The notes below the pieces were generated by a model. The model was not told the DNA's origin, did no database searches, and saw nothing but the letters and a program-made list of their open reading frames with translations. From positions 192,952-256,951 of the forward strand of contig BEHN01000003.1 of assembly GCA_002898535.1 (NCBI GenBank): 64,000 nt of DNA. The letters run 5' to 3'. This stretch comes from a bacterium HR11 (GTDB lineage Bacteria > Acidobacteriota > HRBIN11). Positions 13,238-64,000 of the stretch are shown piece by piece. The position numbers were made by a program, and so were the translations under genes. Position 1 is the stretch's first letter. Each line of letters starts with the position of its first letter.

Positions 13238-15166
13238 ATGAGTGGGAAGACTTTCTACATCACGACGCCGATCTACTACGTCAACGACCTACCACACATC
13301 GGTCACACCTTTACGACGGTCCTGGCCGACGTCACGGCCCGCTATAAGCGGCTTCTGGGCTATGACGTCTTCTTCCTGACCGGCACGGACGAGCACGGCC
13401 AGAAGGCCGAGCGGGCGGCCCGCCAGCGAGGCATCACGCCCAAAGAGTTGGCCGACCGGGTCGTCGAAAATTACTACCGACTGTGGGAGCGTCTCGGGAT
13501 CCAGTACTCCCGCTTCATCCGGACGACCGATCCGGTCCATCGACGGGCCGTCCAGAGATTCTTCCAGCGATTGGTCGATCGGGGCGACATCTACAAGGGC
13601 GTCTACGAGGGCTGGTACTGCCCGGGTTGCGAGGCCTTTGTCCCGGAGGGGTCTGTCGCCGACGGCCGCCATACCGACTGCGGCCGGGCAGTCGAGCGGC
13701 TCCGGGAAGACAGCTACTTCTTCCGCCTGAGCCGCTACCAGAAGCCCCTGCTGGAACACTACCGGGCCCATCCGGAATTCATCCAGCCCGAGTCCCGCTA
13801 CAACGAGGTCGTGCGCTTCGTCGAGGCCGGCCTGAAAGACCTTTCCGTGAGCCGCCGGACCGTCCGGTGGGGCATTCCCGTCCCTGACGACCCGGACCAC
13901 GTCATCTACGTCTGGCTGGATGCCCTGACGAACTACATCTCCGCCCTCGGTTGGGCCGACGGCGACCCCCTGTACGAACGCTACTGGCCGGCCGACGTCC
14001 ACCTGGTCGGCAAGGACATCCTGCGGTTCCACTGCGTGTACTGGCCGGCCTTCCTGATGTCAGCCGGCCTGCCCCTGCCCCGGCAGGTGTTCGGCCACGG
14101 CTGGTGGCTCCGGGCCCAGAGCAAGATGTCCAAGTCCCTCGGCAACATCATCTCGCCGGAAGAGCTCCTCGAGTTCTCATCGCCCGACATGGTCCGCTAC
14201 TATCTGGTCCGGGAGGCGCCCCTGGACGTCGACAGCGACTTCAGCTACGAAGGCTATCAGACCCGGGTCAATGCCGACCTGGCCAACGATTACGGGAACC
14301 TGATCCACCGCCTGACGTCCATGCTGGCCCGCTTCTGCCAGGGCCGCGTCCCTGATTACAGCCGGCTCGATGGGGAGATGACCGCTGTCCGGGCGGACCT
14401 CGAGGCCTGGGTCGACCGCCTCGAGGTCTGGGTCGACCGCCTGGCCTATCCGGAACTCCTGCGGGAGGCGTGGGTGCATATCCAGCGCTTGAATGGACTC
14501 CTGGCCCGGCGGGAACCCTGGCGGCTCATGCGGGACGCGGCAACCCGCGTCGAGGCCCAGACCCTCCTGGGGTTTGTGACCGAGGCCCTCCGCCTGATCA
14601 CGGTCGGCGTCTGGCCCGTCATCCCCTTTGGGGCCGGGGCGTTCCTGGAACGCCTCGGCCAGCCGGTCCCGCCCCGCCGAGACCACTTGGCCTGGGGTGT
14701 CCTGCCGCCGGGGACCCCCGTGGCCCTGGGACCGGAATTGTATCCCCGGATCGAACTGCCCGAGGAGGTTCGGAGCGAGGTACCTTCGGCACCGGCCTCG
14801 CCTCCGACGTCGCCGGCGACATCATCGTCCGTGGAGGGGCTTGCGATGATCGACATCCAGACGTTCATGCAGGTCGACCTGCGAGTCGGTGAAGTCGTGA
14901 CGGCCGAGCCCATCGAGAAGTCCAAGAAGCTCCTGAAGCTCATCGTGGACCTGGGGACGGAGCGGCGCCAGGTCGTGGCCGGCATCGCCCAGTACTATCG
15001 GCCGGAGGAACTCCGGGGCCGGAAGGTCGTCGTGGTCGCCAACCTGGAGCCGGCCGTCCTGATGGGGACGGAGTCTCAGGGGATGATCCTGGCCGCCGAC
15101 GTCGATGGCCGGCCATATCTCTTGGAAGTCCCGGCCGAAGTCCCCAACGGGAGTCGGGTCCGATGA
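13238..15166 (+). CDS. metG: Methionine--tRNA ligase with C-terminal tRNA-binding (EMAP-like) domain
   Basis: Class I HIGH (YYVNDLPHIGH) and KMSKS (SKMSKSLGN); zinc knuckle CPGCEAF...; C-terminal ...DLRVGEVVTAEPIEKSKKLLKLIVDLG... Confidence 0.9.
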   Translation: MSGKTFYITTPIYYVNDLPHIGHTFTTVLADVTARYKRLLGYDVFFLTGTDEHGQKAERAARQRGITPKELADRVVENYYRLWERLGIQYSRFIRTTDPVHRRAVQRFFQRLVDRGDIYKGVYEGWYCPGCEAFVPEGSVADGRHTDCGRAVERLREDSYFFRLSRYQKPLLEHYRAHPEFIQPESRYNEVVRFVEAGLKDLSVSRRTVRWGIPVPDDPDHVIYVWLDALTNYISALGWADGDPLYERYWPADVHLVGKDILRFHCVYWPAFLMSAGLPLPRQVFGHGWWLRAQSKMSKSLGNIISPEELLEFSSPDMVRYYLVREAPLDVDSDFSYEGYQTRVNADLANDYGNLIHRLTSMLARFCQGRVPDYSRLDGEMTAVRADLEAWVDRLEVWVDRLAYPELLREAWVHIQRLNGLLARREPWRLMRDAATRVEAQTLLGFVTEALRLITVGVWPVIPFGAGAFLERLGQPVPPRRDHLAWGVLPPGTPVALGPELYPRIELPEEVRSEVPSAPASPPTSPATSSSVEGLAMIDIQTFMQVDLRVGEVVTAEPIEKSKKLLKLIVDLGTERRQVVAGIAQYYRPEELRGRKVVVVANLEPAVLMGTESQGMILAADVDGRPYLLEVPAEVPNGSRVR

Positions 15167-15792: not shown

Positions 15793-15854
15793 GGAAGCGA
15801 CCCCGCTCTCCGACGAGCGGGGCGGGGTGTCCATTCCGAATTCCCGCAGGCCTA

Positions 15855-49492: not shown

Positions 49493-49981
49493 ATGTCGGA
49501 GACCCGTTTCAAAATCGGTGAACTCGCCCGGCACGCGGGCGTGACGCCCCGGACGATTCACTACTACGTCCACATCGGCCTCTTGCCGCCGCCCAAGGGA
49601 GGGGGCCGGTACAGCTACTACACCGAGGAGCACCTCCGGCGTCTCCGCATCATCCGTCAACTCCAGCGTTACTTCATCCCCCTCCGTCGCATCAAGGAGG
49701 CCCTGCGTCTGAAGTCTTTAGAAGAACTCGAAGAAGAAGTCGCCCGGGCCCACCGCGTGGCCCACGAGTACCGGGATGCCCTGCGGACCGCCATACCGAT
49801 GACGCCCGAGCGGACGACCTGGGAACGCATCGTCCTCCAGGACGGCCTGGAGCTTCACTACCGTCTCCCGATGGCCACGGGCGTCCAGCAGTTCATCGAG
49901 TTCATCCTCCAGCACGCCCGGACGTGGCCCCCGGCGGAGCCGTCGGAAGGACCCGATGCAGGCGGGGGAGTCAGGGGGTAG
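49493..49981 (+). CDS. MerR-family transcriptional regulator
   Basis: FKIGELARHAGVTPRTIHYYVHIGLLPPP HTH and coiled-coil dimerisation helix. Confidence 0.75.
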   Translation: MSETRFKIGELARHAGVTPRTIHYYVHIGLLPPPKGGGRYSYYTEEHLRRLRIIRQLQRYFIPLRRIKEALRLKSLEELEEEVARAHRVAHEYRDALRTAIPMTPERTTWERIVLQDGLELHYRLPMATGVQQFIEFILQHARTWPPAEPSEGPDAGGGVRG

Positions 49982-50054
49982 GGATGGGGAATGGGAATTA
50001 GGCATTGGGAATGAGGAATGGGGAATGGGGGATGGGGAGTGGGATGAGGCATCG

Positions 50055-50082
50055 GGGGAAGTCGGGGCTCTCCGACTTCCCC
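50055..50082. terminator. Bidirectional terminator hairpin between convergent merR-like and roadblock genes
   Basis: ggggaagtcgg-ggctct-ccgacttcccc (perfect 11-bp stem), preceded by a (GGGAATG)n heptamer run at 49980-50045. Confidence 0.45.
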
Positions 50083-50084
50083 GT

Positions 50085-50432
50085 CTACCCTGGCCGCAGG
50101 CCCAAGGTGCGCCACAGGCGGGGCCAGTCGGTCGTCCGGGGGTCGAGGAGGACGCCCCGGAAGCCGCCCTGGGTCATGACGATGCCGACGTCGCCGCCGA
50201 CGTAGACCCAGAAGTCCTGGGGGAGCCAGTTGTGGTCCGTCAGGGCCGTCAGGTTGCTGGCCAGGGTGTGGAGGGTCATGGTGACGGTGGCGCAGTACTG
50301 GGCCAGCGTGGCCAGGAGTTGGGGGCTGACGGGTTGTCGGGTCCGGTAGGCCGTGTACTGGCCGTCGGGCGTGAAGACGAAGGCGACCTGGACGCCGGGG
50401 ATGTCCATCAATTCATCCAAGGAGTCGGTCAT
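50085..50432 (-). CDS. Roadblock/LC7 (MglB-like) domain protein
   Basis: 115 aa, MTDSLDELMDIPGVQVAFVFTPDGQ... alpha-beta-beta-alpha-beta-beta pattern typical of Roadblock/LC7. Confidence 0.6.
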   Translation of the reverse strand: MTDSLDELMDIPGVQVAFVFTPDGQYTAYRTRQPVSPQLLATLAQYCATVTMTLHTLASNLTALTDHNWLPQDFWVYVGGDVGIVMTQGGFRGVLLDPRTTDWPRLWRTLGLRPG

Positions 50433-50681
50433 GGGGCCTCCCTGCCGGGCGGGGGGAGATGCGGGCCGGGTCCCCGGGGAGGGGTTCCCGGCCCCGCTCG
50501 TCCGGGCGGGCGCTCCGCTCCGAACCCCGCTCGTCAGAGCGGGGTCCCAGGAATCCCCCCTCCGCTCCGGCCCCCGCTCGTCCGGGCGGGGGTCGGGAAG
50601 ATGCAGGATGGGGCGTCGGGGGGGACCCGGCTTCCCTCATCGCTGGATGGGGCGCGGGCCCCGACCCCCACGCCGGGGTGT

Positions 50682-53600
50682 TCACGGTCCGTACAGCAAC
50701 AGGTTAAAGGCCCGGGTGATGAAGACGGCCATCTGGGCCCGGTTGACGGGGTCCAGCGGACAGTAGGTCGTCGCCGTGCACCCGCCGGTGACATTGTTCG
50801 CCCACATCCAGTGCACATGCCGACAGTAGAACACCCCGTCGGGCACGTCCGTGAAGTGGTTGGGCGCGCTGTCGGTGCAGTCCCAGCTCCCGCCCGGGCC
50901 GCTCCCGGACAGCGGCGGGTCCGTCCCCAAGACGGCCCGGCTGATAAAGATGGCCATCTGGGCCCGGTTGACGGGGTCCAGCGGACAGTAGGTCGTCGCC
51001 GTGCACCCGCCGGCGATGTTGTTGGCCCACATCCAATGGACATGGGGACAGTAGAACACCCCGTCGGGCACGTCCGTGAAGTGGTTGGTCGCATTGTCCG
51101 TGCAGTCCCAGCTCCCGCCCGGACCGCTCCCGGACAGCGGCGGGTCCGTCCCCAAGACGGCCCGGCTGATAAAGATGGCCATCTGGGCCCGATTGACCGT
51201 CTGAAGCGGGCAGTAGTCGCTGGCCGTACAGCCGCCCGTCACGCCCCGGTGCAACAGCGTCTCCACCGCCTTGTAGTAAAACACATTCGGCGCCACGTCG
51301 GCAAAGCTCGGCCCGATGTGGAGCGTCCACGTCTTGGGCGGCTGGCTTCCGCTTCCTACGACGCTCACTGTCTCATCGAACGTCACGTCCCTGTGGCCCG
51401 TCCCCGTCCGGGTCCCCGTGATGGCGTAGCAGTCGCCCGTAGCCGTCTGGCAGTCGGCCGTCCCCCCGGCCGGGATCGTCCCGTAGGCGGCCGCCGCGTC
51501 CGTCAGCGACGCCACGACCCCCGGCGGGTCCACCACGTTGGAAGCATTGCCATTCAATATATGTGAGGTGTTGTCGTTATTCCTCCAGGCCGGCACGACC
51601 GTCACGGCTTCGCCCGAGTCCCACACGCCGTTGCCGTCGGGGTCCCCCGCGATCGCCAGGCCCGTCCCCGCCAGCGGAGGGGGCGCCTCATAAGAGCCGA
51701 TGTCGCACACGGCGACGCCGTCGCCATCGCCATCCTGGGGGCGGGTGACGCCGTTTTGCGATTGGTTGTTCACAGGTACGTTATTACAGGTGGTGTTATC
51801 GCCGGCATCAATCGCCGGGCTATCGGGATTAAGCGGGAAGTAGGCCGGCGAGCCGGTCGGTGTGCCAAGCATAGGGTCCACGCCGATGACGTTGCCGTTG
51901 ACGCCGTTGACAAGGCCGCAGGCGTGGGCGCTGTCTTCGATGAGGTTGTTCTTGGAGGTAGGGTCGACAGTTCCGCCGAGCTGCCCGCAGTCCCCACCGC
52001 TCGTGCTGTTGGCGATGATGGTGTTCTTGAGCGTGACCATACCCGAAGTAAGGTCGATGCCGCCGCCGCGGATGCCGGCGCTATTTCCACTCACCGTACA
52101 ATTCGTCATCCTGAGGGTGGCCCAACTACCAAAGCCGGTCTTGGCATTGGCAATGCCGCCGCCGTAGCCGCCGGCGCTATTTCCACTCACCGTGCAGTTT
52201 GTCATCGTGAGCACGCCTGAATTCGAAATGCCGCCGGCGACGTAGACGACGCTATTTCCACTCACCGTACAATTTTCCATCGTGAGCGTGCCTTTATTAT
52301 TCGAAATGCCGCCGCTGCCACCGCCGGCGCTATTTCCACTCACCGTGCAATTTTTCATCGTGAGCGTGCCGTCATTGTAAATGCCGCCGCCCCCGCCGCC
52401 GCTGCCGGTGCCATTTTCACTTACCGTGCAGTTTGTCATCGTGAGCGTGCCTGAATTCGAAATGCCGCCGCCGGCGCCGCCGGCGATATTTCCACTCACC
52501 GTGCAGTTTGTCATCGTGAGCGTGCCTGCATTCAAAATGCCGCCGCCGGAGTCAAAGCTGGTGAGACCGTTTGCTATCGTCAGGCCAGATATCTGCACCG
52601 TCTTACCGCTGCTTATGTTGAACACCCTCGTCGCATTATTCCCGCTCACGGTCAACTGATCCGCACCAGGCCCAACGATCGCCAGATTCTTGTCTATCAA
52701 AAGCTCGCCCAGCGTGGAATCAAGCGTGATCGTGCCGGTCACGGTGATCTGAATCGTGTCCCCATCACCGGCAGCAGCTATCTCTCCCCTCAGGCATTGC
52801 GAGCAATTACTCGCATCCGATGTACTACTCACCGTACGCAAATTCCCTACCCCCAAAACATATTCATAAGAACCTACAAAACCTCCCTGGTCCTTCGCAA
52901 CAACCGTGAAAACAAATATACCTGCCTGATCAGGTGTCCCCGAGATCACCCCACCCGTGGAAAGGCTCAGCCCATTCGGCAGGTTAGAGCCAGAAGCCAG
53001 TGAAAAATTGTATGGAGAAGTACCCCCAACTGCAGAGATGCTCTGGTTGTAATTCTGACCAATGATCGCAAATGGCAGTGAGGTCGGGGAAAGGAAAATA
53101 TTTGCCTCCGACGCCCCCATGTCAACCGTGTTGTTGACTACTCTCGCAGAGCCGCGCTGGTCCGTCGTGAGCGGGTTCCCGTCGGGGTCTTTGGCCAGAT
53201 CGTTGCTACCGCGATCAATTGCAGGGCTATTACCCAGCAAGGCGTGTGTCTGTGTGGGCCCACCGTAGTTCCCCAGCGGCAGCAGCTTGGGATCTTGCCC
53301 CGTGATGTAATGGGTTGAGCCTGGTGGAAGCGATGTACCGGTTGTGTCCTTGATCAGGTTGAAGTCGCCGGAGCTGACCGGCCCATCGATGTCTGGATGA
53401 CCGCCGTTTGACACGTTGTTTGCCACTATGCTGTTGTTGAGGTTGAGCGTGCCTACATTGTGAATGCCGCCGCCGCCGCTGGATGTATTTCCACTCACTG
53501 TGCAGTTTGTCATCGTGAGCGTGCCTGCATTGAGAATGCCGCCGCCGGCGCCGGCGCTATTTCCACTCACCGTGCAATTTGTCATCGTAATCGTGCCAAC

Positions 53601-54263
53601 GTTTTCAATGGCGCCGCCGCTACCGGCGCTGTTGCCGGCGAAGGTGCTGTTGATAACGGTCAGTATGCTGTTGTTTCGGATGGCGCCGCCGCCGGTGGCG
53701 CTATTGCCGGCGAAGGTGCTGTTGATGATCTTCATAACGCCGACGTTATAGATGCCGCCGCCGAGGATGTGGGCGCTGTTACCGGCGAAGGTGCTGTTGG
53801 TGACCGTCACCGTGCCGGCGTTGGAGATGCCGCCGCCGTAATCGAAGGAGCTACCCTTTCCATTTGCTATGGTGATGTTTTGCAGGGTAAGATTTGCGCC
53901 GCTGTTTACAACCATGACCCGCACGCTGCCCCCGCCGCTGATAGCGATCGTCCCACCGCCGTTAATCGTCAGCGTTCCCGCGCCGCTCACGATGTTTGGT
54001 AAGGTGGAGCCAAGCGTAATCGTCCCACCCCCTGTGATGAAGATGATGGTATCGTCGTCGGGGCTTCCGGCGAAGCAGTCCGCGTTGGCAGGCGTGTTGT
54101 TTGCCGCCAGGATGGCCTCGCGCAGGGTGCACTGGAAGTCGTTGTTGGTGTTATCCGCCAGCGAGGTGACGATGTAGACCGCCGCATAGGCCGACCGCAT
54201 GCTTTGCCCGGACAGCCACAGTGACACGACGAGCAGAGTGAGAAGAGAGAAAGTTCTTTTCAT
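50682..54263 (-). CDS. Secreted 1193-aa surface protein: signal peptide, long right-handed parallel beta-helix (PbH1) repeat region, Ig/lectin-like middle, three C-terminal SLH-like Cys-containing repeats
   Basis: Start MKRTFSLLTLLVVSLWLSG after GAGGTGA; the tool's start at 54638 would lie upstream of the promoter. PbH1 motifs GGGIxNxGTLTMTNCTVSGNSAGG repeat more than 15 times. C-terminal repeats FTDVPDGVFYCPHVHWMWANN..GGCTATTYCPLDPVNRAQMA.FI.RA occur three times. Confidence 0.7.
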   Translation of the reverse strand: MKRTFSLLTLLVVSLWLSGQSMRSAYAAVYIVTSLADNTNNDFQCTLREAILAANNTPANADCFAGSPDDDTIIFITGGGTITLGSTLPNIVSGAGTLTINGGGTIAISGGGSVRVMVVNSGANLTLQNITIANGKGSSFDYGGGISNAGTVTVTNSTFAGNSAHILGGGIYNVGVMKIINSTFAGNSATGGGAIRNNSILTVINSTFAGNSAGSGGAIENVGTITMTNCTVSGNSAGAGGGILNAGTLTMTNCTVSGNTSSGGGGIHNVGTLNLNNSIVANNVSNGGHPDIDGPVSSGDFNLIKDTTGTSLPPGSTHYITGQDPKLLPLGNYGGPTQTHALLGNSPAIDRGSNDLAKDPDGNPLTTDQRGSARVVNNTVDMGASEANIFLSPTSLPFAIIGQNYNQSISAVGGTSPYNFSLASGSNLPNGLSLSTGGVISGTPDQAGIFVFTVVAKDQGGFVGSYEYVLGVGNLRTVSSTSDASNCSQCLRGEIAAAGDGDTIQITVTGTITLDSTLGELLIDKNLAIVGPGADQLTVSGNNATRVFNISSGKTVQISGLTIANGLTSFDSGGGILNAGTLTMTNCTVSGNIAGGAGGGISNSGTLTMTNCTVSENGTGSGGGGGGIYNDGTLTMKNCTVSGNSAGGGSGGISNNKGTLTMENCTVSGNSVVYVAGGISNSGVLTMTNCTVSGNSAGGYGGGIANAKTGFGSWATLRMTNCTVSGNSAGIRGGGIDLTSGMVTLKNTIIANSTSGGDCGQLGGTVDPTSKNNLIEDSAHACGLVNGVNGNVIGVDPMLGTPTGSPAYFPLNPDSPAIDAGDNTTCNNVPVNNQSQNGVTRPQDGDGDGVAVCDIGSYEAPPPLAGTGLAIAGDPDGNGVWDSGEAVTVVPAWRNNDNTSHILNGNASNVVDPPGVVASLTDAAAAYGTIPAGGTADCQTATGDCYAITGTRTGTGHRDVTFDETVSVVGSGSQPPKTWTLHIGPSFADVAPNVFYYKAVETLLHRGVTGGCTASDYCPLQTVNRAQMAIFISRAVLGTDPPLSGSGPGGSWDCTDNATNHFTDVPDGVFYCPHVHWMWANNIAGGCTATTYCPLDPVNRAQMAIFISRAVLGTDPPLSGSGPGGSWDCTDSAPNHFTDVPDGVFYCRHVHWMWANNVTGGCTATTYCPLDPVNRAQMAVFITRAFNLLLYGP
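50704..51330. repeat. Three ~222-bp near-identical tandem repeats encoding the C-terminal SLH-like modules
   Basis: gataaagatggccatctgggcccggttgacggggtccagcggacagtaggtcgtcgccgtgcacccgccgg recurs at ~50716, ~50943, ~51163. Confidence 0.75.
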
Positions 54264-54267
54264 GGTT

Positions 54268-54477
54268 TCACCTCGTCTGCGCCGGACCTGGACAGCCGGG
54301 AGGGCCAGCGACCGTCCATGTCGGGGGGATGCCGCCGACCTTGAAATCCTCCTGCAGGAGGGTGTCAGGCGCCATCGTGGCGACCGCCATGAAGCCGGCA
54401 TGGCCGGCCATGACCAGGGCCAGGAGGCTCGCCAGGCTCCATGGGGTCCATGGATGGCATCGGAGGTGGATGCGCAT
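54268..54477 (-). CDS. Putative 69-aa membrane protein between the sigma-54 promoter and the beta-helix gene
   Basis: ATG 54477 after ACGAGGTCGG; hydrophobic WSLASLLALVMAGHAGFMAVATMA; its TGA overlaps the RBS of the downstream gene. Confidence 0.35.
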   Translation of the reverse strand: MRIHLRCHPWTPWSLASLLALVMAGHAGFMAVATMAPDTLLQEDFKVGGIPPTWTVAGPPGCPGPAQTR

Positions 54478-54621
54478 GGTCCGACCTCGTGACGGGCGGG
54501 ATGCGGGGCATCCAGCCCGGGTGGGGTTGGGTCCATGCGGTTTCCCCGGATGGGGGAGTGACCCACCGACCGCGATTCACTCCTCTTGGGTGTGGGGGAT
54601 GGGGGGCGGCGGGGGGATTCA

Positions 54622-54637
54622 AGCAAGAGGCGTGCCA
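54622..54637 (-). promoter_or_regulatory. Sigma-54 (-24/-12) promoter
   Basis: Minus strand reads ttTGGCACGcctcTTGCTtgaa = TGGCACG-N4-TTGCT, an exact match to the sigma-54 core consensus. Confidence 0.65.
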
Positions 54638-54693
54638 AAGGGCGGGGGTGGGGTGGGGAGCGGAGGCGGGCGGGGGGCGGGGGCGGTCCCGGT

Positions 54694-54745
54694 TGTCACG
54701 GTGACAGGGGGTGTGACGTCACATGGGACAGCCTGTGACATGTCA
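54694..54745. promoter_or_regulatory. Three palindromic candidate EBP-binding sites (upstream activator sequences)
   Basis: TGTCAC-g-GTGACA (54694-54706), TGTGACGTCACA (54712-54723), TGTGACATGTCA (54734-54745); 60-110 bp upstream of the -24 element; the last overlaps the regulator stop codon. Confidence 0.5.
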
Positions 54746-57700
54746 TTCGGCGTGGGGGTCGGGGGGTTTGTCTTTTCCGCGCAGGCCCCAGCGGGCCAGT
54801 TTGCGGTAGAGGGTCATGCGGCTGAGGCCGAGGCGGCGGGCGGCCTGGGAGATATTGCCGTGGGTTTCTTCCAGGGCGGCCAGGAGGCGACGCTTTTCGG
54901 CGTCGGGGTCGGGTTCGCCGGGGGCGGCGGGGGCCGGGGGCCGCAGGTAGGCCGGGAGGTCCTCGACCCGGAGGACGGGGCCGGGGCAGTGGACGAGGGC
55001 GGACTCGACGACGTTGCGGAGTTCCCGGACGTTGCCGGGCCATGGATAGTCGAGCAGGGCGTCCAGGACGGCGCGGCTGATCTCGACGGGCGGGCGGTCC
55101 CGCTGTTGGGTCCATTCTCGGGCGAAGTGGACGGCCAGGAGGGGGATGTCGGTGCGGCGTTCCCGCAGGGGCGGCAGGTGGATTTCGGCGACCCGGATGC
55201 GGTACAGGAGGTCCTGTCGGAAGCGGCCGGCGATGACTTCCTGGTCGAGGTCTCGATGGGTGGCGGCGAGGATGCGCACGTCGATCTTCCGGGGGCGGGT
55301 CTCGCCGAGGCGGATGATTTCTCGTTCCTGGAGGGTCCGGAGGAGGTTCCGTTGGACGTCCAGGGGCATGTCGCCGATTTCATCCAGGAAGAGGGTCCCC
55401 CCGTGGGCCGATTCGAAGAAGCCGACCTGGTCGGTGACGGCGCCCGTGAAGGCGCCCTTGCGGTGGCCGAAGAGCTGGCTACTCAGGACGGATTCGGTCA
55501 GGCCCCCGCAGTTGAGGGCGATGAAGGGACGGTCCCGGCGGGGGCTGAGGTCGTGGAGGGCGCGGGCGACGAGTTCCTTGCCCGTGCCGGTCTCGCCGAC
55601 GATGAGGACGGTCGTGTCGAAGGGGCCGAGTTCTTCGATCTGGCGGTAGACCTGGAGCATCGGGGGGCTCTGGCCGACGAGGCCGTAGCGGGCGTAGGTG
55701 GCCTCCGACATGCGGTAGGGGTCGTAAATTTCGGAGATGTCGTAGAGGAAGAGGAGGTGTCCCCCGGGGTGGGTCGGGTCGGCCTGGATTTCGATGTCGG
55801 TCCAGTAGCGGTGGCCGTCGGGGCCGACGAAGCTGACGGAGGTCCTGGGAGCCGCCTCGGCGGGCGACGTGAGGAGGTGCCGCAGGGCCCGCAAGTCCTC
55901 GGGGGCGAAGGGGAGGGCGGTCTCCCAAGCTTGACCCTGGAGGGCCTCGGCGGATCGGCCGAGGAGTCGTTCGGCGACTCGGTTGGCGAAGACGACGCGG
56001 CCTTGGGCGTCGAGGGTCAGGACGCCGACCCGGAGGCGATGGAAGACCATGAGCAGGTCTTCATGGGATTGACGGAGGTCGGCGTGGGCCTGGGTGAGTT
56101 CTTCATGGGATTGAGTGAGCCGGACGTTCATCTCGGCGAGGGCTTCCTTTTGAGCCTGGACCTCGGCCGTGCGTTGGGCCACCGTGGTTTCCAGGAGGCG
56201 GGCCCGGCGCGTGAGGGCATGCAGGCGCCATCGAATCAGGCCGGTGATGAGGCCGGTCAGGCCGAGGGCGCACAGGACATAGAAGTAGCCGGTCTGGTAC
56301 AGGTAGGGCCGCAGGGTGAGGTCCAGGGCGGCCCCGGTTTCGTTCCAGAGGCCGTCGTCGTTGCTGGCCTGGACCCGGAAGCGGTAACGGCCGGGGGGCA
56401 CGTGAGTGTAGTAAGCGGACCGTCGGGTCCCGGCCTCGACCCAGTCGGCGTCGTAGCCCTCCAGGCGATAGCGGAAGCGGACTTTCAGGGGGTTCCGCAG
56501 GCTCAGGGCGGTATAGCGGACCTCCAGGTCGTTTTGGCCCGGCGGGAGGACGACGGCCCCGTTAGGGGGGACGGAGAGGCCCCGGGCCGTCCGGAGGGCC
56601 TCGATGTAGACGGGCGGGGGAACGGGATTGTCGGCCCGGGGGTCGATACGGGCCAGGCCCCGAAGGGTCGGGAACCAGAGGATGCCGTCGGGGGTCTTCG
56701 CGCCGGCGGGTTGACTGCCGCCGGCGCATTCGGCCAGGGTCAGGCCGTCCTGGGTGTCGTACAGCACGGCCGGGACGGTCGGAGCGGCGCCCGTGGCGAC
56801 GGCCTCCAGGGCCGATGGGTCGACCCGGAAGATGCCCTTGTTGCTACAGACCCAGAGGCGGCCCCGGTCGTCTTCGAGGACCTGGGTGATGAAGTCGTCG
56901 GGCAGGCCCGTGGCCGTCGTAAAGGCGTACCAGCGGCCGTTCCGGTAGAGGTCCAGGCCGCCGCCGTAGGTGCCGACCCAGACCCGACCGGCGGCGTCGA
57001 CGTGGACGGCCCGGACGTGGTCGTGGGAGAGCCCGTTCCGGGTCGTGAAGTTCTCGAAGCGGCCGTCGGCCCATCGGCTGAGGCCCCCGCGGGTCCCGAC
57101 CCAGAGGGCGCCGGTGCGGTCCTGGGTGATGAAACGGACCCAGTCATGGACGAGGCCGTCCGACGTCCGATAGACCCGGCGGACGGCATCGTTTTCGAGG
57201 ACGGCCAGACCCGCCTCGGTCCCGACCCAGATTCGGCCGGCCGTGTCTTCGTAGAGGGCCAGGACGGCATCGCTGGGGAGGCCCTGCCGCATCGTCAGAC
57301 GAACGATTTCGAAGGCGGCGGTCCGACCCCCGCCGGCGGGGCGGGCTGGACGGGGACGAAGCCGGACGAGGCCCAGGCCGCCAACCCAGAGGTCGCCCGA
57401 GCGGGTCCGCAAGAGGGACCATATACATCCGCCGGGCAGGCCGTCCCGTTCGGTCCAGTGCTCGCTACGGCCGTCGGGCCTCCAATGGACCAACCCCCCG
57501 CAGGTCAGGCCCAACCAGAGGCCGTCCTCGTCGTCGCTGACGACGGGGACGAAGACGTCGCCCGGGAGGCCGTCCGCCTGCCCAAAGGTCCGTACACGGG
57601 GGACCCGTCCCTGATAGAGGCCCTCGCCGTCGGTCCCGACCCAGAGGTTACCCTCCCGGTCTTCCAAGAGGGCTCGGACGGTCCGACGGCGAACGCGGTC

Positions 57701-58654
57701 GTCGGGGCTCGCGGGTTCCCATCGGCCGTCGGTCCAGCGGAACAGGCCGGCCTGCCATGCCCCGGCCCAGAGACGGCCCCGGCGGTCCTCATAGACGGTC
57801 CGGACCAAGGCCGGGAGACCCTGCTCGGGACCGTAGCGAGTCCACCGACCCTCGTGATAGCGGAGGAGGCCGAGGCCCTCGGTAGCGAACCACCAGGCCC
57901 CGGCCCGGTCCTGGTAGATCTGCCATACGAGGGGCGCCGGGCCATAGGGGAAGGGCAGGACCGTCCATTGGCCGTCCCGATAGACATACAGACGGTCGCC
58001 GACGCCCCACCAGAGGCCGCCCGCCGTATCGAGGTTCTGAAATCCGATGGGGCCTTGCCGGATTTCCGGCCGGATCGGGAGGGCGTGAAAACGGCCCTGC
58101 CGATAGTAGGCCGGCCCCTGGGCGGTCATGACCCAGACCGTCCCTCGAGGGTCGACGGCGACGGCGTAAGCGTTCCTATCGGGGAGGCCCTCGGTCGTCG
58201 AGAAGGCCTCGAAGCGGCCGGCGGCATAGCGGTAGAGGCCGGCATCCAGGGTGGTCACCCAGAGGGCGCCCGTCGGGTCTTCCACCAGGGCCAGGACTTG
58301 GGTCCCCCGCAGGACCGGCGTGTTCGTCGGGCGGAAGACGGTAAACTGTACGCCGTCAAAGCGGGCTAAGCCCCCGAAGGTCCCGACCCAGAGGTAGCCG
58401 TCGCGGGTCTGCAGGAGGGCCGTGACCGAATTCTGGGGCAGGCCAGCGCCGGTCCCCCAAGCGGTCCAGAGGTAGCGGTCCGGTGCGACGTCGCCGTCTG
58501 ACGGGGGCCGGGGGATCGGGGCCGCCGCGATGCCCGAGGATAGAAGGAGTCCCTGCCCCAGCCAGGCGTACAAGACAACAAAAATGATCCGAGGGGTGAC
58601 GGGTCCAGTGTACCGGTGGGCGGTCCCACCAGTGTCAGACTCTGCGGGGCCCAT
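54743..58654 (-). CDS. Membrane-anchored sigma-54-dependent transcriptional activator with extracytoplasmic double beta-propeller (Reg_prop) plus Y_Y_Y sensor, TM, coiled-coil, PAS, AAA+ (GAFTGA) and Fis-type HTH
   Basis: N-terminal TM RIIFVVLYAWLGQGLLL; repeated ...DGYLWVGTFGGLARFDG... propeller blades; Y_Y_Y block VRFRYRLEGYDADW...GRYRFRVQA; second TM; sigma-54 module VGETGTGKE...RKGAFTGA...GTLFLDEIGD; C-terminal ISQAARRLGLSRMTLYRKL. No HisKA/REC. Confidence 0.85.
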   Translation of the reverse strand: MGPAESDTGGTAHRYTGPVTPRIIFVVLYAWLGQGLLLSSGIAAAPIPRPPSDGDVAPDRYLWTAWGTGAGLPQNSVTALLQTRDGYLWVGTFGGLARFDGVQFTVFRPTNTPVLRGTQVLALVEDPTGALWVTTLDAGLYRYAAGRFEAFSTTEGLPDRNAYAVAVDPRGTVWVMTAQGPAYYRQGRFHALPIRPEIRQGPIGFQNLDTAGGLWWGVGDRLYVYRDGQWTVLPFPYGPAPLVWQIYQDRAGAWWFATEGLGLLRYHEGRWTRYGPEQGLPALVRTVYEDRRGRLWAGAWQAGLFRWTDGRWEPASPDDRVRRRTVRALLEDREGNLWVGTDGEGLYQGRVPRVRTFGQADGLPGDVFVPVVSDDEDGLWLGLTCGGLVHWRPDGRSEHWTERDGLPGGCIWSLLRTRSGDLWVGGLGLVRLRPRPARPAGGGRTAAFEIVRLTMRQGLPSDAVLALYEDTAGRIWVGTEAGLAVLENDAVRRVYRTSDGLVHDWVRFITQDRTGALWVGTRGGLSRWADGRFENFTTRNGLSHDHVRAVHVDAAGRVWVGTYGGGLDLYRNGRWYAFTTATGLPDDFITQVLEDDRGRLWVCSNKGIFRVDPSALEAVATGAAPTVPAVLYDTQDGLTLAECAGGSQPAGAKTPDGILWFPTLRGLARIDPRADNPVPPPVYIEALRTARGLSVPPNGAVVLPPGQNDLEVRYTALSLRNPLKVRFRYRLEGYDADWVEAGTRRSAYYTHVPPGRYRFRVQASNDDGLWNETGAALDLTLRPYLYQTGYFYVLCALGLTGLITGLIRWRLHALTRRARLLETTVAQRTAEVQAQKEALAEMNVRLTQSHEELTQAHADLRQSHEDLLMVFHRLRVGVLTLDAQGRVVFANRVAERLLGRSAEALQGQAWETALPFAPEDLRALRHLLTSPAEAAPRTSVSFVGPDGHRYWTDIEIQADPTHPGGHLLFLYDISEIYDPYRMSEATYARYGLVGQSPPMLQVYRQIEELGPFDTTVLIVGETGTGKELVARALHDLSPRRDRPFIALNCGGLTESVLSSQLFGHRKGAFTGAVTDQVGFFESAHGGTLFLDEIGDMPLDVQRNLLRTLQEREIIRLGETRPRKIDVRILAATHRDLDQEVIAGRFRQDLLYRIRVAEIHLPPLRERRTDIPLLAVHFAREWTQQRDRPPVEISRAVLDALLDYPWPGNVRELRNVVESALVHCPGPVLRVEDLPAYLRPPAPAAPGEPDPDAEKRRLLAALEETHGNISQAARRLGLSRMTLYRKLARWGLRGKDKPPDPHAE

Positions 58655-58814
58655 CGTCCGGCTCCGGCCATCGGAACGCAGGCCACATCCTTGACCCCGC
58701 CCCGGTGGGTGCGCCGATAGCATAAGGGGAATGGCGGACGGGAGCAAGATGCGAGATGCGACCCCTCAGGGCGGGGTCCCGGCAGGGGTCCCAGGTCCCG
58801 AGTCCGGCAACGGA

Positions 58815-60128
58815 CTATCGACCTGTTTCGGTTGTAGGCAGGGGCGCCTGCACTCCTGGAGTCAGCCGTTCCAAGCCGTCCAGGTAGGGCCGCAGGGCCG
58901 GCGGGATGAGGACCGAGCCGTCGGCCTGCTGGTAGTTCTCCAGGAGGACGACGATAGTCCGTCCGACGGCCAGGCCCGAGCCGTTCAGCGTGTGGACGTA
59001 CCGGGCCTTGCCGCCCCCGGCCGGACGGTACCGCAGGCCCATCCGCCGGGCCTGAAAGTCCCCGCAGTTCGAGCAAGACGAGACCTCCAGCCACCGCTGT
59101 TGGCTCGGGAGCCACGCCTCGATGTCGTACGTCTTGGCCGCCGCAAAGCCCATGTCGCCCGTGCACAGGAGCATGACCCGGTAGGGGATGCCCAGCCGCT
59201 GGAGGACCGTCTCGGCGTGCCGGGTCAGCGTCTCCAGGTCGTCGTAGGACCGCTCCGGCGTCGTGATGTGGACGAGCTCGACCTTATCGAACTGATGCTG
59301 ACGGATGAGGCCCTTGCTTTCCTGGCCGTACGTACCGGCCTCCCGTCGGAAGCAGGGGCTCCAGCAGACGAGCCGGATCGGTAGGTCCTTCTCCGACAGC
59401 GTCTCCTCCCGGAAGAGGTTCGTCACGGGGACCTCGGCCGTCGGGATCAAAAACAGGTCGTCAGACGGGACGGCGTAGAGGTCCGCCTCGAACTTCGGGA
59501 GCTGGCCCGTGCCGGTCATCGTCGCCCGGTTGACGAGATAGGGGACCCAGACTTCGTGGTAGCCGTGTTCCCGGATGTGGAGGTCCAGCATGAACTGGGC
59601 GAGGGCCCGGACGAGTCGGGCGCCCCAGCCCTTGAACAGGGGGAAACGGGCGGCGGCGACCTTGGCCGCCCGCTCCAGGTCTAAGATCCCTAAGAAGCGG
59701 CCGAGGTCCACGTGGTCCCGGACGGGAAACGAAAAGGACGGGATCTCCCCCCAGCGGCGGACCTCGACGTTATGCGAGGCGTCCGGTCCGACGGGGACGG
59801 ACTCATGGGGGACGTTGGGGACCCGCAGGAGCCAGGCCTCGACCCAGGCGTCCAGCTCGGCGACGCGGGCGTCCAGCTCCTCGATGCGGGCGCTGATGCG
59901 CTGATTCTCCTCCAGGAGGTCCGTCGGGTCCTGGCCGGCCTGCTTGAGGCGACCAATCTGACGGGTCAGTTCGTTTCGACGGTGCTTGAGGGCCTCGACC
60001 TCTTGAAGGAGCGACCGGCGACGGGCGTCCTTCTCGAGGAATTCGTCGAGGCCGACGTCCACGCCCCGTTCGGCCATCTTGCGGCGGACGTATTCGACGT
60101 TTTCCCGGACCCACCGGAGGTCTAACAT
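58815..60128 (-). CDS. serS: Serine--tRNA ligase
   Basis: N-terminal coiled-coil MLDLRWVRENVEYV...; class II motifs (...FRREAGTYGQ...GLIRQHQFDKVE...); GGTGG before the ATG. The tool's 60227 start is repeat read-through. Confidence 0.9.
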   Translation of the reverse strand: MLDLRWVRENVEYVRRKMAERGVDVGLDEFLEKDARRRSLLQEVEALKHRRNELTRQIGRLKQAGQDPTDLLEENQRISARIEELDARVAELDAWVEAWLLRVPNVPHESVPVGPDASHNVEVRRWGEIPSFSFPVRDHVDLGRFLGILDLERAAKVAAARFPLFKGWGARLVRALAQFMLDLHIREHGYHEVWVPYLVNRATMTGTGQLPKFEADLYAVPSDDLFLIPTAEVPVTNLFREETLSEKDLPIRLVCWSPCFRREAGTYGQESKGLIRQHQFDKVELVHITTPERSYDDLETLTRHAETVLQRLGIPYRVMLLCTGDMGFAAAKTYDIEAWLPSQQRWLEVSSCSNCGDFQARRMGLRYRPAGGGKARYVHTLNGSGLAVGRTIVVLLENYQQADGSVLIPPALRPYLDGLERLTPGVQAPLPTTETGR

Positions 60129-60147
60129 CGTCCACCACCCAGGCAGG

Positions 60148-60200
60148 CGATAGGGAAGAGGATGCAGGATGCAAGATACAAGATGCAAGATACGGGATGC
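60148..60200 (-). repeat. Family-3 (CYTGCAT)n array oriented with serS, ending ~20 nt before its RBS
   Basis: Minus reading catcttgcatcccgtatcttgcatcttgtatcttgcatcctgcatcc. Confidence 0.55.
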
Positions 60201-60377
60201 AAGATGAGACCATGGACCATAGACCATGGACCATGGACTCTGGGATAGCCTCGGAAGATTCTCTTTGCCTCACCCCGAGGGGAGGAAATCCAGCGGGCCT
60301 GGATGCCCTCGGAGCTCCAGCCCGGTCTATCGTCCGTGGTCCGTGGTCCATGGTCTACTTATCCATGAGGCCACGCG

Positions 60378-62219: not shown

Positions 62220-64000
62220 TCAAGGTACTTGGAAAGCCAGGTCATCCCGGTCGTTGTAGGAGCCGGAGGTGCAGGCGGAGGCGGAGCCGCCGTAACGTTC
62301 CTGGACGCGGACGGCGTGGAGGCCCGAGACGTTCGCCAGGGTCATCGTCACCGAGAAGGTCTTGGCCTGACCGCTGACGTTGCACTGGAGGCCCGTCGCC
62401 ACGGCCGTCCAGGTCGGGCTGTTAGCGTTGGACGTGTAGTAGATGTCGACGTAGTCGCTGGTCCCCCAGCACCAGACGGTGGCGTCGATGCGGACCTGCT
62501 TGCCGGGGCCCAGGGCCGTCCCGTCGGTCGTCTGGACGACGATGCGGTCGACGCTCTCGTCGTTGTGGTAAGTGCCGCTGGTGCCGTCGGCGCAGGAGTT
62601 GTTGATCGTGTTGGGCTGATTCAGCTCGGCCTTGCCGGCGATGTTGTCCCGGCTGTCGATGAGGCTTCCCGTGTCACACCCGCAGATGTTGGACGCCCCG
62701 CACTTGGGAGCCTTCAGGGTCGCATCATAGGTCGCCCCCGTCGGCGTACAGGCGGCAGTGGTACCGACCTGGAAGATCAGGTCATCCCGGTCGTTGTAGG
62801 AGCCGGAGGTGCAGGCGGAGGCGGAGCCGCCGTAACGTTCCTGGACGCGGACGGCGTGGAGGCCCGAGACGTTCGCCAGGGTCATCGTCACCGAGAAGGT
62901 CTTGGCCTGACCGCTGACGTTGCACTGGAGGCCCGTCGCCACGGCCGTCCAGGTCGGGCTGTTAGCGTTGGACGTGTAGTAGATGTCGACGTAGTCGCTG
63001 GTCCCCCAGCACCAGACGGTGGCGTCGATGCGGACCTGCTTGCCGGGGCCCAGGGCCGTCCCGTCGGTCGTCTGGACGACGATGCGGTCGACGCTCTCGT
63101 CGTTGTGGTAAGTGCCGCTGGTGCCGTCGGCGCAGGAGTTGTTGATCGTGTTGGGCTGATTCAGCTCGGCCTTGCCGGCGATGTTGTCCCGGCTGTCGAT
63201 GAGGCTCCCCGTGTCACACCCGCAGATGTTGGACGCCCCGCACTTGGGAGCCTTCAGGGTCGCATCGTAGGTCGCCCCCGTCGGCGTACAGGCGCCGCCG
63301 CTGGCCGTCGTGAAGCTCCACGTCGCCGACCACGCGCTGGCGCCGCAGGAATTGACGGCCCGGGCTCGCCAGTAGTAGGTCGTGGCACTATTCAGGGCCG
63401 GCGAGACCGTCCATTGGCTGGCCGTCAGGCCCGTCTGGGACCGGACGACGGTCGCGCAGGCGCTGTCGGAACAGACCTGGACGTCGTAGGACGTGGCGCC
63501 CGTCACGTCGCTCCAGTCCAGCGTCGGGGTCGTGGACACGCCCGTCGCCCCGTTGGCCGGGCTGACCAGGGTCGGGGCCGACGGTGCCGTGCAACTCCCG
63601 GGGCTCGGCGTCACGCACGTGCACGTGCTGGCCGGGCCGAAACAGGCGTTGGAAGACCCGACGGCCATGACGACGTAGCAGTACGGACGACCGTTGGCGA
63701 CCTCCGTGTCGGTGAAGCTCGTCGACGTAACCGTCCCGATGAGGGTCTTCCCGAAATTACAGCCGGCGTGGCCCTCGGTCCGAAAGACCCAGTACTTGGC
63801 GGCGTTCGCGACAGAAGTCCACGAGAGGCCGACCTGATTGTCGCCCGGCGTGGCCGTCAGGGACGGGGCGCCCGTGGGGCCCGTCGAGCAACCGCTGTTC
63901 TGAGGGGTCGGCGTCGAGCAGGCGATGTTGTGGCGGTTGAAGGCCGCATAGATGGCCGTCATGTGGGGCGTCCCGTCGTTGAGGTTGCCGTTGTCGTCGT
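62220..64000 (-). CDS. Secreted repeat protein with fibronectin-type-III-like modules and two copies of a ~180-aa Cys-rich domain; N-terminus beyond window end
   Basis: FN3-like VGLSWTSVANAAKYWVFRTEG...GRPYCYVVMAV; frame stays open upstream of the tool's Met at 63962 (...DDNGNLNDGTPH-M...), so the gene probably continues past 64000. Confidence 0.55.
   Translation of the reverse strand, partial: DDNGNLNDGTPHMTAIYAAFNRHNIACSTPTPQNSGCSTGPTGAPSLTATPGDNQVGLSWTSVANAAKYWVFRTEGHAGCNFGKTLIGTVTSTSFTDTEVANGRPYCYVVMAVGSSNACFGPASTCTCVTPSPGSCTAPSAPTLVSPANGATGVSTTPTLDWSDVTGATSYDVQVCSDSACATVVRSQTGLTASQWTVSPALNSATTYYWRARAVNSCGASAWSATWSFTTASGGACTPTGATYDATLKAPKCGASNICGCDTGSLIDSRDNIAGKAELNQPNTINNSCADGTSGTYHNDESVDRIVVQTTDGTALGPGKQVRIDATVWCWGTSDYVDIYYTSNANSPTWTAVATGLQCNVSGQAKTFSVTMTLANVSGLHAVRVQERYGGSASACTSGSYNDRDDLIFQVGTTAACTPTGATYDATLKAPKCGASNICGCDTGSLIDSRDNIAGKAELNQPNTINNSCADGTSGTYHNDESVDRIVVQTTDGTALGPGKQVRIDATVWCWGTSDYVDIYYTSNANSPTWTAVATGLQCNVSGQAKTFSVTMTLANVSGLHAVRVQERYGGSASACTSGSYNDRDDLAFQVP
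62241..63293. repeat. Direct tandem duplication, 2 x 540 bp, ~99.6 % identical, inside the FN3-protein gene
   Basis: 62241-62753 matches 62781-63293 with 2 mismatches seen (62675 t/c, 62733 a/g). Confidence 0.85.

Follow-up and report, generated by a model that had tools for sequence, protein, structure and literature searches.

The 64,000-nucleotide stretch of DNA considered here (positions 192,952 to 256,951 of contig BEHN01000003.1 from the uncultured hot-spring bacterium HR11; hereafter, the window) contains a gene for a 1303-residue activator of sigma-54-dependent transcription that is predicted to span the membrane, with a set of palindromes at its stop codon, a promoter element of the -24/-12 type beyond them and, further on, a gene for a 1193-residue secreted beta-helix protein. 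A preliminary description of this DNA had placed all parts of a sigma-54 regulatory unit on the minus strand, and each of these parts is present where it was described or a few bases away; every relevant gene between 50085 and 58654 is on that strand (Table 1). Because BamA, ClpB and several tRNA synthetases are also encoded in the window, the latter can be taken for an ordinary chromosomal region of an outer-membrane bacterium. The lineage of the organism, HRBIN11, has been used as a class of Acidobacteriota (PMC11778308). The seryl-tRNA synthetase encoded beside the activator falls, at 90% identity, into one cluster with GBC84341.1 of bacterium HR11; three of its database matches are 95%, 78% and 67% identical, and the next best, at about 57-66% identity, belong to several phyla where a source is named.

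Architecture and relatives of the activator

At the level of sequence, the protein belongs among the enhancer-binding proteins of bacteria. Its AAA+ region is covered by the Pfam families Sigma54_activat (residues 992-1159, E 2.9e-66) and AAA_lid_14 (E 4.7e-25), the Walker A (GETGTGKE), Walker B (FLDEIGDM) and GAFTGA (residues 1067-1072, nt 55439-55456) motifs are all intact, and a phmmer search of the PDB aligned the protein with the ZraR structure 1OJL (E 7.8e-88). The AAA+ region is followed by a Fis-type helix-turn-helix (HTH) domain whose recognition helix, as located in an alignment of the C-termini, is LSRMTLYRKL. The NCBIfam models of the NtrC/NifA/ZraR type aligned solely to this C-terminal third (residue 983 onward), and no model reached its equivalog cut-off on the protein. 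An identical activator gene was called on the Logan contigs L081 and L082; Logan contigs from the runs DRR101361 and DRR101362 match positions 53551-60204 of the window at 100% identity.

The larger, N-terminal part of the protein is a sensor region bracketed by two hydrophobic segments. The first of these, which has a counterpart in nearly all relatives, is by its sequence a signal peptide or a signal anchor, and the second, followed by basic residues, is a predicted transmembrane helix. Between them, Pfam detected Reg_prop repeats (170 bits in sum, with five repeats individually significant) and a Y_Y_Y domain. On the other side of the transmembrane helix, matches to PAS_4, PAS_9 and PAS cover residues 870-975, and the helix-rich, heptad-like segment that precedes them suggests, when read by eye, a coiled coil between the membrane and the PAS domain.

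The domain content expected from the preliminary description, namely Reg_prop, Y_Y_Y, PAS, Sigma54_activat with GAFTGA, and HTH_8, was thus recovered in full by the profile searches. Pfam gave no match to HisKA, HATPase_c or Response_reg in the activator at E<=0.01, and no AraC-type HTH was detected in it. Judged by these domains, the protein is neither a response regulator of the NtrC type, as it has no receiver (REC) domain, nor a hybrid two-component system (HTCS), as it has no kinase core, no REC domain and no HTH of the AraC type. Since HisKA, HATPase and receiver domains are all missing, the signal would have to be transferred within the protein without a phosphorelay. There is also no kinase gene beside the activator gene, which is preceded by serS and followed by its putative targets.

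The affiliation of the sensor follows from both sequence and structure. In the PDB, its closest sequence matches by phmmer were 4A2L (E 2.5e-51) and 3V9F (E 2.1e-49). An AlphaFold model of residues 43-790, computed from an input alignment of 45 sequences, reached a pLDDT of 90.7 and a pTM of 0.88, and the best PDB matches of this model were the periplasmic domains of the Bacteroides proteins BT4663 and BT3049; over the full length, Foldseek returned a TM-score of 0.73 to BT4663 (4A2M) and of 0.74-0.75 to BT3049 (3V9F). As modeled, the sensor is a double propeller with a Y_Y_Y domain of the kind found in Bacteroides HTCSs, flanked by membrane segments; the sequence match to 4A2L and the similarity of the model to BT4663 bear out what the preliminary description had recognized in the translation.

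Related Reg_prop/Y_Y_Y sensors that carry other outputs are 35-43% identical to the activator over 60-70% of its length. Because the outputs of these relatives differ, the sensor can be considered a mobile input module. In particular, in the proteins P0034, P0038, P0099 and P0103, the same sensor (37-42% identical) is joined to Ser/Thr protein kinase domains, and elsewhere it is joined to HisKA_3 kinases, hybrid kinases and GGDEF cyclases, so that the module appears to be widely reused.

Joined to a sigma-54 output, the sensor is rare, albeit not unique, as far as sequence searches can tell. In a word-indexed search, the full-length architecture was found in 34 of the 120 clusters (at 90% identity) that were listed, 33 of them top-ranked and one placed lower; the remaining listed clusters had histidine kinase, hybrid kinase, GGDEF or Ser/Thr kinase outputs, or none recorded. 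All 34 clusters are at most 48% identical to the activator of the window and, where a taxon is named, belong to Acidobacteriota, Blastocatellia or Thermoanaerobaculia; their annotation is generic. An exhaustive HMMER search, run with residues 560-1303 on a set of 1.84 billion representatives (clusters at 50% identity), gave about 14 proteins whose alignment takes in the whole junction of sensor and output (Y_Y_Y, transmembrane helix, PAS, AAA+ and HTH). Six further long proteins from the same list (P0190, P0191, P0229, P0250, P0254 and P0267) were confirmed as a second subtype with the same sensor and output and no PAS domain; its linker is shorter, with some 150-158 residues from the transmembrane helix to GAFTGA versus 259-277 residues in the subtype of the window. 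The motif that follows Y_Y_Y, YQT.(W/Y)F(Y) with about 20 hydrophobic residues and R.R thereafter, is kept in all 18 members examined. A genome scan that used the whole activator as a source of orthologs was abandoned: it returned at least 80 ordinary sigma-54 activators from many phyla, no ortholog among them, with the AAA+ pattern FLDEIGDM dominating the matches.

The above data support the view that these proteins form an uncharacterized, rare subfamily of membrane-spanning sigma-54 activators. No description of a propeller, or of any other transmembrane or periplasmic sensor, on a sigma-54 activator was found in the open-access literature searched, in line with the preliminary description, which knew of no such characterized arrangement; an absence of this kind is not proof. 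The contrast that it drew with normal activators, as cytoplasmic proteins informed by a separate kinase, was overstated inasmuch as sigma-54 activators of the one-component kind, with a GAF or PAS sensor in the cytoplasm, are common (PMC4641369), whereas the membrane-spanning topology and the periplasmic sensor are indeed unusual.

Table 1. Positions of the features of the activator locus in the window and in homologous loci (residue numbers refer to the activator)
Feature	Position	Strand	Description	Basis
Activator gene	54743..58654	-	sigma-54 enhancer-binding protein, 1303 aa	open reading frame, translation, Pfam and NCBIfam domains
N-terminal hydrophobic segment	58529..58588	-	residues 23-42, IIFVVLYAWLGQGLLLSSGI	Kyte-Doolittle 19-residue mean 1.71
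Extracytoplasmic sensor	56291..58528	-	residues 43-788, two Reg_prop beta-propellers and Y_Y_Y Ig-like domain	Pfam, phmmer, AlphaFold, Foldseek
Y_Y_Y domain	56315-56494	-	residues 721-780	Pfam
Transmembrane helix	56234..56290	-	residues 789-807, GYFYVLCALGLTGLITGLI, then basic residues	hydropathy 1.77
Cytoplasmic linker	55730..56233	-	residues 808-975, helix-rich heptad-like segment, then PAS	Pfam, sequence
AAA+ sigma-54 interaction domain and lid	54923..55681	-	residues 992-1244	Pfam, PDB match
Fis-type HTH_8 DNA-binding domain	54788..54904	-	residues 1251-1289	Pfam HTH_8, E 8.4e-16
Candidate enhancer (upstream activating sequence)	54694..54745	-	three palindromes	sequence, repeat and palindrome scans, enrichment, relatives
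Palindrome overlapping the TGA stop of the activator	54736-54745	-	TGACATGTCA	repeat/palindrome scan
Palindrome	54712-54723	-	TGTGACGTCACA	repeat/palindrome scan
Palindrome	54694-54706	-	TGTCACCGTGACA, TGTCAC-C-GTGACA	repeat/palindrome scan
Candidate sigma-54 -24/-12 element	54623-54637	-	TGGCACGCCTCTTGC; GG 54635-54636, GC 54623-54624	exact TGGCAC-N5-TTGC
69-aa reading frame (HRbin11_00764), in leader; doubtful gene	54268..54477	-	GAGG 7 nt before ATG	G+C at third codon positions 0.80
Beta-helix/SLH gene, putative target	50682..54263	-	1193 aa, secreted	Pfam and NCBIfam
DUF2173 (Roadblock/LC7-like) gene	50085..50432	-	115 aa	Pfam DUF2173, E 1.4e-15
-24/-12 element, L083			CGGCACAGCGGTTGCA	
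-24/-12 element, L086			TGGTACGCCTCTTGCA	
-24/-12 element, L087			TGGCACATTGCTTGCA	
-24/-12 element, L088			CGGCACACCGGTTGCC	
-24/-12 element, L090			CGGCACGCTGGTTGCA	
-24/-12 element, L091			TGGCATCATTATTGCT	
Ankyrin gene, L083	14539-14919			
Ankyrin gene, L086	13915-14283			
Ankyrin gene, L087	14026-14394			
Ankyrin gene, L088	16381-16779			
Ankyrin gene, L089	15852-16235			
Ankyrin gene, L090	14246-14668			
Ankyrin gene, L092	14047-14445			
Ankyrin gene, L175	14069-14461			

Palindromes, promoter element and recognition helix

Three palindromes follow one another from the stop codon of the activator gene onward, as the preliminary description had it. The pentamer GTCAC/GTGAC occurs five times within this 61-bp stretch and 110 times in the whole 64 kb; the corresponding probability, about 1e-7, is optimistic, the motif having been picked after inspection. 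Together with their counterparts in related loci (see below), these palindromes probably represent the enhancer of the adjoining activator.

The perfect -24/-12 element announced in the same description is also in place, some 60-110 bp from the palindromes, with a gap of about 57 bp to the last of them, and is oriented at the beta-helix gene. It is the sole exact match to TGGCAC-N5-TTGC within the 64 kb, where 0.09 would be expected. The predicted start site lies near 54608-54612 on the minus strand. A simple scan, which covers sigma-70-like sites and no other promoter types, found none of them in the intergenic region between the activator and beta-helix genes. The roughly 50 nt between the last palindrome and the -24 element (54640-54690, minus strand) are an almost pure C-rich tract, in which no AT-rich site resembling that of the integration host factor is visible. 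The domains of the activator, the element and the situation in the relatives together suggest that transcription depends on sigma-54 in vivo.

It should be considered here whether the activator might be a homolog that no longer works with sigma-54 and serves as a repressor or as an activator of sigma-70 promoters. Such proteins do exist in the family: TyrR, NtrX and the NtrC of Rhodobacter are homologs of sigma-54 activators that act without sigma-54. The known cases, however, have a degenerate GAFTGA motif, whereas here the motif is intact and GAFTGA or GSFTGA is retained in all 11 relatives checked; moreover, a near-perfect -24/-12 element lies at the expected distance. We regard this possibility as the most improbable of those considered.

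The comparison set comprised 11 loci with full-length homologs, 38-48% identical to the activator of the window; they were fetched by exact-protein look-up and all come from metagenomic assemblies, of Acidobacteriota where the source is named. In 10 of the 11, the stop codon of the activator gene is followed by an array of three to seven half-sites, palindromic or direct, with a typical spacing of 10-12 bp; in several relatives, the half-sites of the array are direct repeats that succeed one another at about one turn of the helix. The arrays begin at the stop codon or within about 100 bp of it, except that in L083 and L090 intervening sequence comes first. A canonical -24/-12 element (GG-N10-GC, with at least 9 of 11 consensus positions) is found 120-660 bp past the stop in six of the 11 loci (Table 1), and three more (L089, L173 and L175) have a good -24 and a weaker -12 element. 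The promoter element thus recurs at a like position even though the intergenic DNA of these relatives cannot otherwise be aligned. Because the same layout is kept in these relatives, the arrangement seen in the window is not a chance co-occurrence. The survey of homologous loci that the preliminary description had proposed, accordingly, yielded the activator with an array in 10 of 11 loci, a canonical promoter in six, and mostly secreted proteins behind it.

The intervening sequences have features of their own. In L083, an antitoxin-like gene (Unstab_antitox, 13976-14209) and heptamer-like repeats, GAGGCAATG and CATTGACC (14270-14350), stand between the activator stop and the array; the promoter is shifted to 660 bp past the stop, and the distance from array to promoter is retained. 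In L090, inverted CGAAATC/GATTTCG repeat arrays occupy the corresponding place (13810-13990).

The strongest evidence that the arrays are binding sites of the adjoining activators is the match between the recognition helix and the half-site. Activators with an SRAT helix (L086, L087, L092 and L175) are accompanied by AGACAC half-sites, those with SRST (L083 and L088) by GGACAC, and those with GRTT (L089, L090 and L173) by GAACAC, whereas the (S/T)RMT helices of the window and L091 go with TGT[A/G/C]AC; TGTGACGTC is common to these last two loci. Helix motif and half-site agree in 11 of 11 loci, the window included, in a comparison of motifs delimited by eye and of loci that are not entirely independent of one another. 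The rule had already been formed when two of the loci, L173 and L175, were inspected, and both fit. In a rough neighbor-joining tree, the helix classes are not clades: P0003 (SRAT) and P0007 (SRST) have neither the helix nor the site in common despite 62% identity, whereas P0030, which has the SRAT helix, is only 48-49% identical to P0002 and P0003 of the same class. One homolog from Thermoanaerobaculia, P0026 (L174, 4220-5690), has the helix motif SRRT, outside the four classes.

In the JGI sample 3300037479, the paralogs P0003, P0001 and P0007 are encoded on three long contigs (L086, L083 and L088, respectively), each with a different half-site class or variant. This finding is consistent with the presence of several non-cross-reacting copies of the activator in one genome or community.

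The same data bear on the most skeptical view of the locus, namely, that the palindromes and the TGGCAC-N5-TTGC element are products of chance, a terminator or the sites of some other regulator, and that the beta-helix gene is read from an ordinary promoter. At least one exact match to the promoter element did appear in seven of 100 shuffled windows, palindromes past a stop codon can be terminators, and the sigma-70 scan, being simple, misses other types of promoters. However, the loops of the palindromes are 0-1 nt long, which makes hairpins impossible, and in several relatives the array consists of direct repeats; on these two grounds, the terminator was rejected. Nor would chance explain why the promoter element recurs amid unalignable DNA or why the half-site shifts in step with the recognition helix of the adjoining protein across the loci. 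Taken as a whole, this view appears highly improbable, although slightly less so than a loss of sigma-54 dependence by the activator.

Genes downstream of the promoter

The putative target in the window, described beforehand as a secreted PbH1/SLH protein, indeed has a signal peptide (MKRTFSLLTLLVVSLWLSGQSMRSAYA, read from the translation) and matches to Beta_helix (E 1.2e-15) and SLH (E 7.7e-8 for the whole protein, with no single repeat significant). NCBIfam adds CSLREA_Nterm (E 3.1e-9) and two copies of choice_anch_Q (E 3.2e-29), so that the order is a CSLREA N-terminus, two beta-helix modules, each closed by a choice-of-anchor-Q domain, and the C-terminal SLH region. By these matches, the protein belongs to the SLH-anchored, choice-of-anchor-Q surface proteins, the support for SLH being weak per repeat. 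The G+C content of its gene is 0.50-0.62 over the first 800 codons, versus a window mean of 0.66, and falls at third codon positions to 0.45 around codons 400-500; moreover, the gene contains an internal repeat, with 52324-52404 being 84% identical to 53551-53631. The Logan contig L081 stops at window position 53551, that is, at the edge of this repeat. The low G+C content and the repeat may reflect a foreign origin or recombination between the modules.

The leader of this gene contains a hydrophobic 69-codon reading frame which the preliminary description had counted among the parts of the module. The reading frame is there, with a plausible ribosome-binding site; it has no match in Pfam or NCBIfam, and a search of 5.8 billion proteins returned its own entry, from bacterium HR11, alone. 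Its status as a gene is doubtful, and the module probably does not include it as a conserved element; in relatives, an ankyrin gene takes its position. Rfam gave nothing credible for an RNA element in the leader (49900-54800 was searched), and the leader folds barely better than its shuffles (z = -1.9).

On the far side of the beta-helix gene, 250 bp past it and on the same strand, a DUF2173 gene is possibly the last gene of the unit, if the two are co-transcribed. Between the beta-helix stop and the start of this gene, at 50480-50591, there are three tandem GC-rich hairpin units (core CCCCGCTCGTC[C/A]G[G/A]GCGGG), of which the window contains one more, weaker copy at 15804-15822; as no T-tract follows, they are not a classical terminator. 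Short heptamer-like repeats, CCCATTC/CCTCATT (49985-50060, minus strand), flank the unit. Farther away, a 580-residue reading frame (62220-63962, minus strand), with a match below the Pfam cut-off (E 3e-5) to the second Ig-like domain of phage tail tip protein J, probably encodes an Ig-like surface protein.

In the relatives, the genes that follow the promoter are as a rule secreted, adhesin-like or without a family match (10 of 11 loci; L174, with trehalose genes, is different), and most of the downstream proteins checked have signal peptides. Choice-of-anchor-Q beta-helix proteins akin to that of the window are encoded twice in L086 and once in L087, where the gene is cut by the contig end. 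L090 encodes a 2173-residue protein with CSLREA, HYR and faint FG-GAP matches, L083 two FG-GAP/HYR/PKD proteins of 1780 and 1920 residues, and L091 two proteins of 1744 and about 1650 residues; faint Big_6 matches occur among the large proteins of 1744-1920 residues. A collagen-like protein is encoded in L092, and two related secreted proteins, of 466 and 403 residues, in L173 and L175.

Beside these secreted proteins, the downstream unit of eight of the 11 loci contains a gene for a small protein of three ankyrin repeats (122-140 residues, without a signal peptide), usually as the first gene after the sigma-54 promoter; the copies are 42-58% identical to one another. In L091, the ankyrin gene is replaced, as the first gene after the promoter, by a DUF2173 gene (14073-14471), whose product is 28% identical to the DUF2173 protein of the window (E 7e-19). 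No ankyrin gene was found in the window by tblastn. A scan with a single ankyrin protein led to at least 80 metagenome loci, none of them with a propeller or AAA+ relative. The attempt to define an activator-linked ankyrin subfamily by sequence alone was given up: the repeats are consensus-like and similar everywhere, and it is the conserved position alone that defines these genes.

Thus, as read from the sequences, the conserved order of the cassette is the activator, the array, the sigma-54 promoter, a small cytoplasmic protein (ankyrin or DUF2173) and one or more secreted proteins, often very large. The small protein could feed back on the activator or assist secretion. The earlier suggestion that the switch is dedicated to a single surface protein is not established, as the beta-helix gene of the window has a DUF2173 gene behind it and the units of the relatives include ankyrin or DUF2173 genes.

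Proposed membrane-tethered activation and its alternatives

We consider it probable that the locus encodes a one-component, envelope-spanning sigma-54 switch that comes with its own enhancer, its own promoter and a surface protein as its target. The following sequence of events can be envisaged. The activator would reside in the inner membrane, with the sensor in the periplasm and one transmembrane helix leading to the cytoplasmic coiled coil, the PAS and AAA+ domains, and the Fis-type HTH. An extracytoplasmic ligand, by analogy with BT4663 most likely a glycan or another component of the envelope or matrix, would bind to the sensor dimer and change its geometry; this change would be passed on through the transmembrane helices, the coiled coil and the PAS domains to relieve the repression of the AAA+ domains. 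Three dimers, each attached by its HTH domains to one of the three palindromes, would supply the six subunits of a hexamer which, by means of ATP hydrolysis and its GAFTGA loops, would open the complex of the sigma-54 holoenzyme at the -24/-12 element, so that transcription could proceed into the beta-helix/SLH gene and, perhaps, onward to DUF2173. A tethered regulator that cannot diffuse would gain from being inserted into the membrane beside its own target DNA, and we infer that the sites adjoin the activator gene because of this tethering.

Several points weigh against such a switch. The support is computational throughout, at the level of sequences or models, and the half-site motifs and the windows in which they were counted were picked by eye, which makes the enrichment probabilities optimistic. 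No RpoN box was found in the six reading frames of the 64-kb window. Two of the 11 relatives, L092 and L174, have no recognizable -24/-12 element, and L174 has no array either, the gene for a trehalose-phosphate synthase starting 49 bp past the activator. In the window itself, a leader of about 350 nt separates the promoter from the beta-helix gene and the three GC-rich hairpins precede DUF2173, which makes the extent of the operon uncertain. Finally, no characterized precedent was found for an AAA+ hexamer that is built of membrane-tethered subunits, and RedR2, another sigma-54 activator, is inactivated by sequestration at the membrane (PMC10084136).

The last two points lead to an alternative in which the signal would trigger a proteolytic cut at or near the transmembrane helix, and the released, soluble PAS-AAA+-HTH fragment would diffuse, form the hexamer and activate the promoter. 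A soluble protein would more easily assemble into a hexamer and loop the DNA, and the inactivity of membrane-sequestered RedR2 can be adduced in favor of this scheme as well. On the other hand, the conserved neighborhood contains no protease gene, the placement of the sites beside the activator gene in 10 of 11 relatives better fits a tethered regulator, and the Bacteroides HTCSs, which have the same sensor and transmembrane layout, are taken to be dimers that stay intact, their DNA-binding domains being tethered (PMC11253607). Release by proteolysis, therefore, seems unlikely to us, if clearly less far-fetched than the two alternatives discussed above, and we retain the intact, envelope-spanning switch as the preferred reading.

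Comparison with known systems helps to place such a switch. With the class of NtrC, ZraR, NifA and PspF, the activator shares the AAA+ domain with Walker A, Walker B and GAFTGA, the C-terminal Fis-type HTH, and the placement of the sites some 60-110 bp upstream of a -24/-12 promoter. It differs from them in that its input is a periplasmic propeller/Y_Y_Y region of about 745 residues instead of a receiver, a V4R domain or a cytoplasmic GAF or PAS domain alone, and in being, by prediction, an integral membrane protein. With BT4663, the HTCS that senses heparin and heparan sulfate (4A2L, 4A2M), it shares the two seven-bladed propellers and the Y_Y_Y domain in the same order, the flanking hydrophobic segments, the YQT.WF motif at the entry into the membrane and the continuity of one polypeptide from the sensor to the DNA-binding domain. 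Unlike BT4663, it has no HisKA, HATPase, receiver or AraC-type HTH; its output is an ATP-driven sigma-54 activator and not one of the sigma-70 type, and its lineage is Acidobacteriota, not Bacteroidota. Among the other Reg_prop/Y_Y_Y fusions of the phylum, with HisKA_3, hybrid kinase, GGDEF and Ser/Thr kinase outputs, the sensor is the same, whereas the sigma-54 output is much rarer.

In overall design, a parallel is offered by ToxR and CadC, which likewise unite in a single polypeptide a sensor in the periplasm, one pass through the membrane and a DNA-binding domain in the cytoplasm; cadC adjoins cadBA much as the activator gene lies beside its own target promoter. Here, however, the polypeptide runs the other way round: its DNA-binding domain is C-terminal, and that domain is a Fis-type HTH instead of a winged helix of the OmpR type. 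In addition, the activator needs an AAA+ motor and sigma-54, which implies an oligomer above the dimer.

In textbook accounts, sigma-54 activators are soluble and form their hexamers on the DNA of the enhancer. With an integral membrane receptor as the activator, the question arises of how an AAA+ ring could form, and contact the polymerase, with each of its subunits tethered. The locus offers a compact system for addressing this question, inasmuch as the gene, the sites, the promoter and the target are all found inside 8 kb. Acidobacteriota are abundant in the environment, and their regulation is almost unstudied; in this phylum, the locus ties sigma-54 to the sensing of the cell exterior and to the production of a large surface or matrix protein. 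This link is in keeping with a proposed control of the bacterial exterior by sigma-54 (PMC3162934).

The match between helix and half-site invites a further-reaching interpretation, which we offer tentatively and would not bet on at even odds: the family as a whole could be a set of mutually orthogonal, envelope-spanning sigma-54 switches that work while anchored in the membrane. Three tethered dimers on adjacent sites would form the AAA+ hexamer at the membrane, the position of the sites at the activator stop would hold the target DNA near the inserted protein, the helix code (SRAT, SRST, GRTT, RMT) would stop cross-talk between paralogs in one cell, and the small product of the activated operon, ankyrin or DUF2173, would either act back on the activator or accompany the very large secreted protein. 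The helix/half-site match suggests pairs of sensors and promoters that do not cross-react and that might be put to use once their ligands are known. If tethered, orthogonal switches of this kind do exist, this activator would be the first membrane-embedded enhancer-binding protein, and its family would represent a natural, programmable toolkit that connects sensors to promoters.

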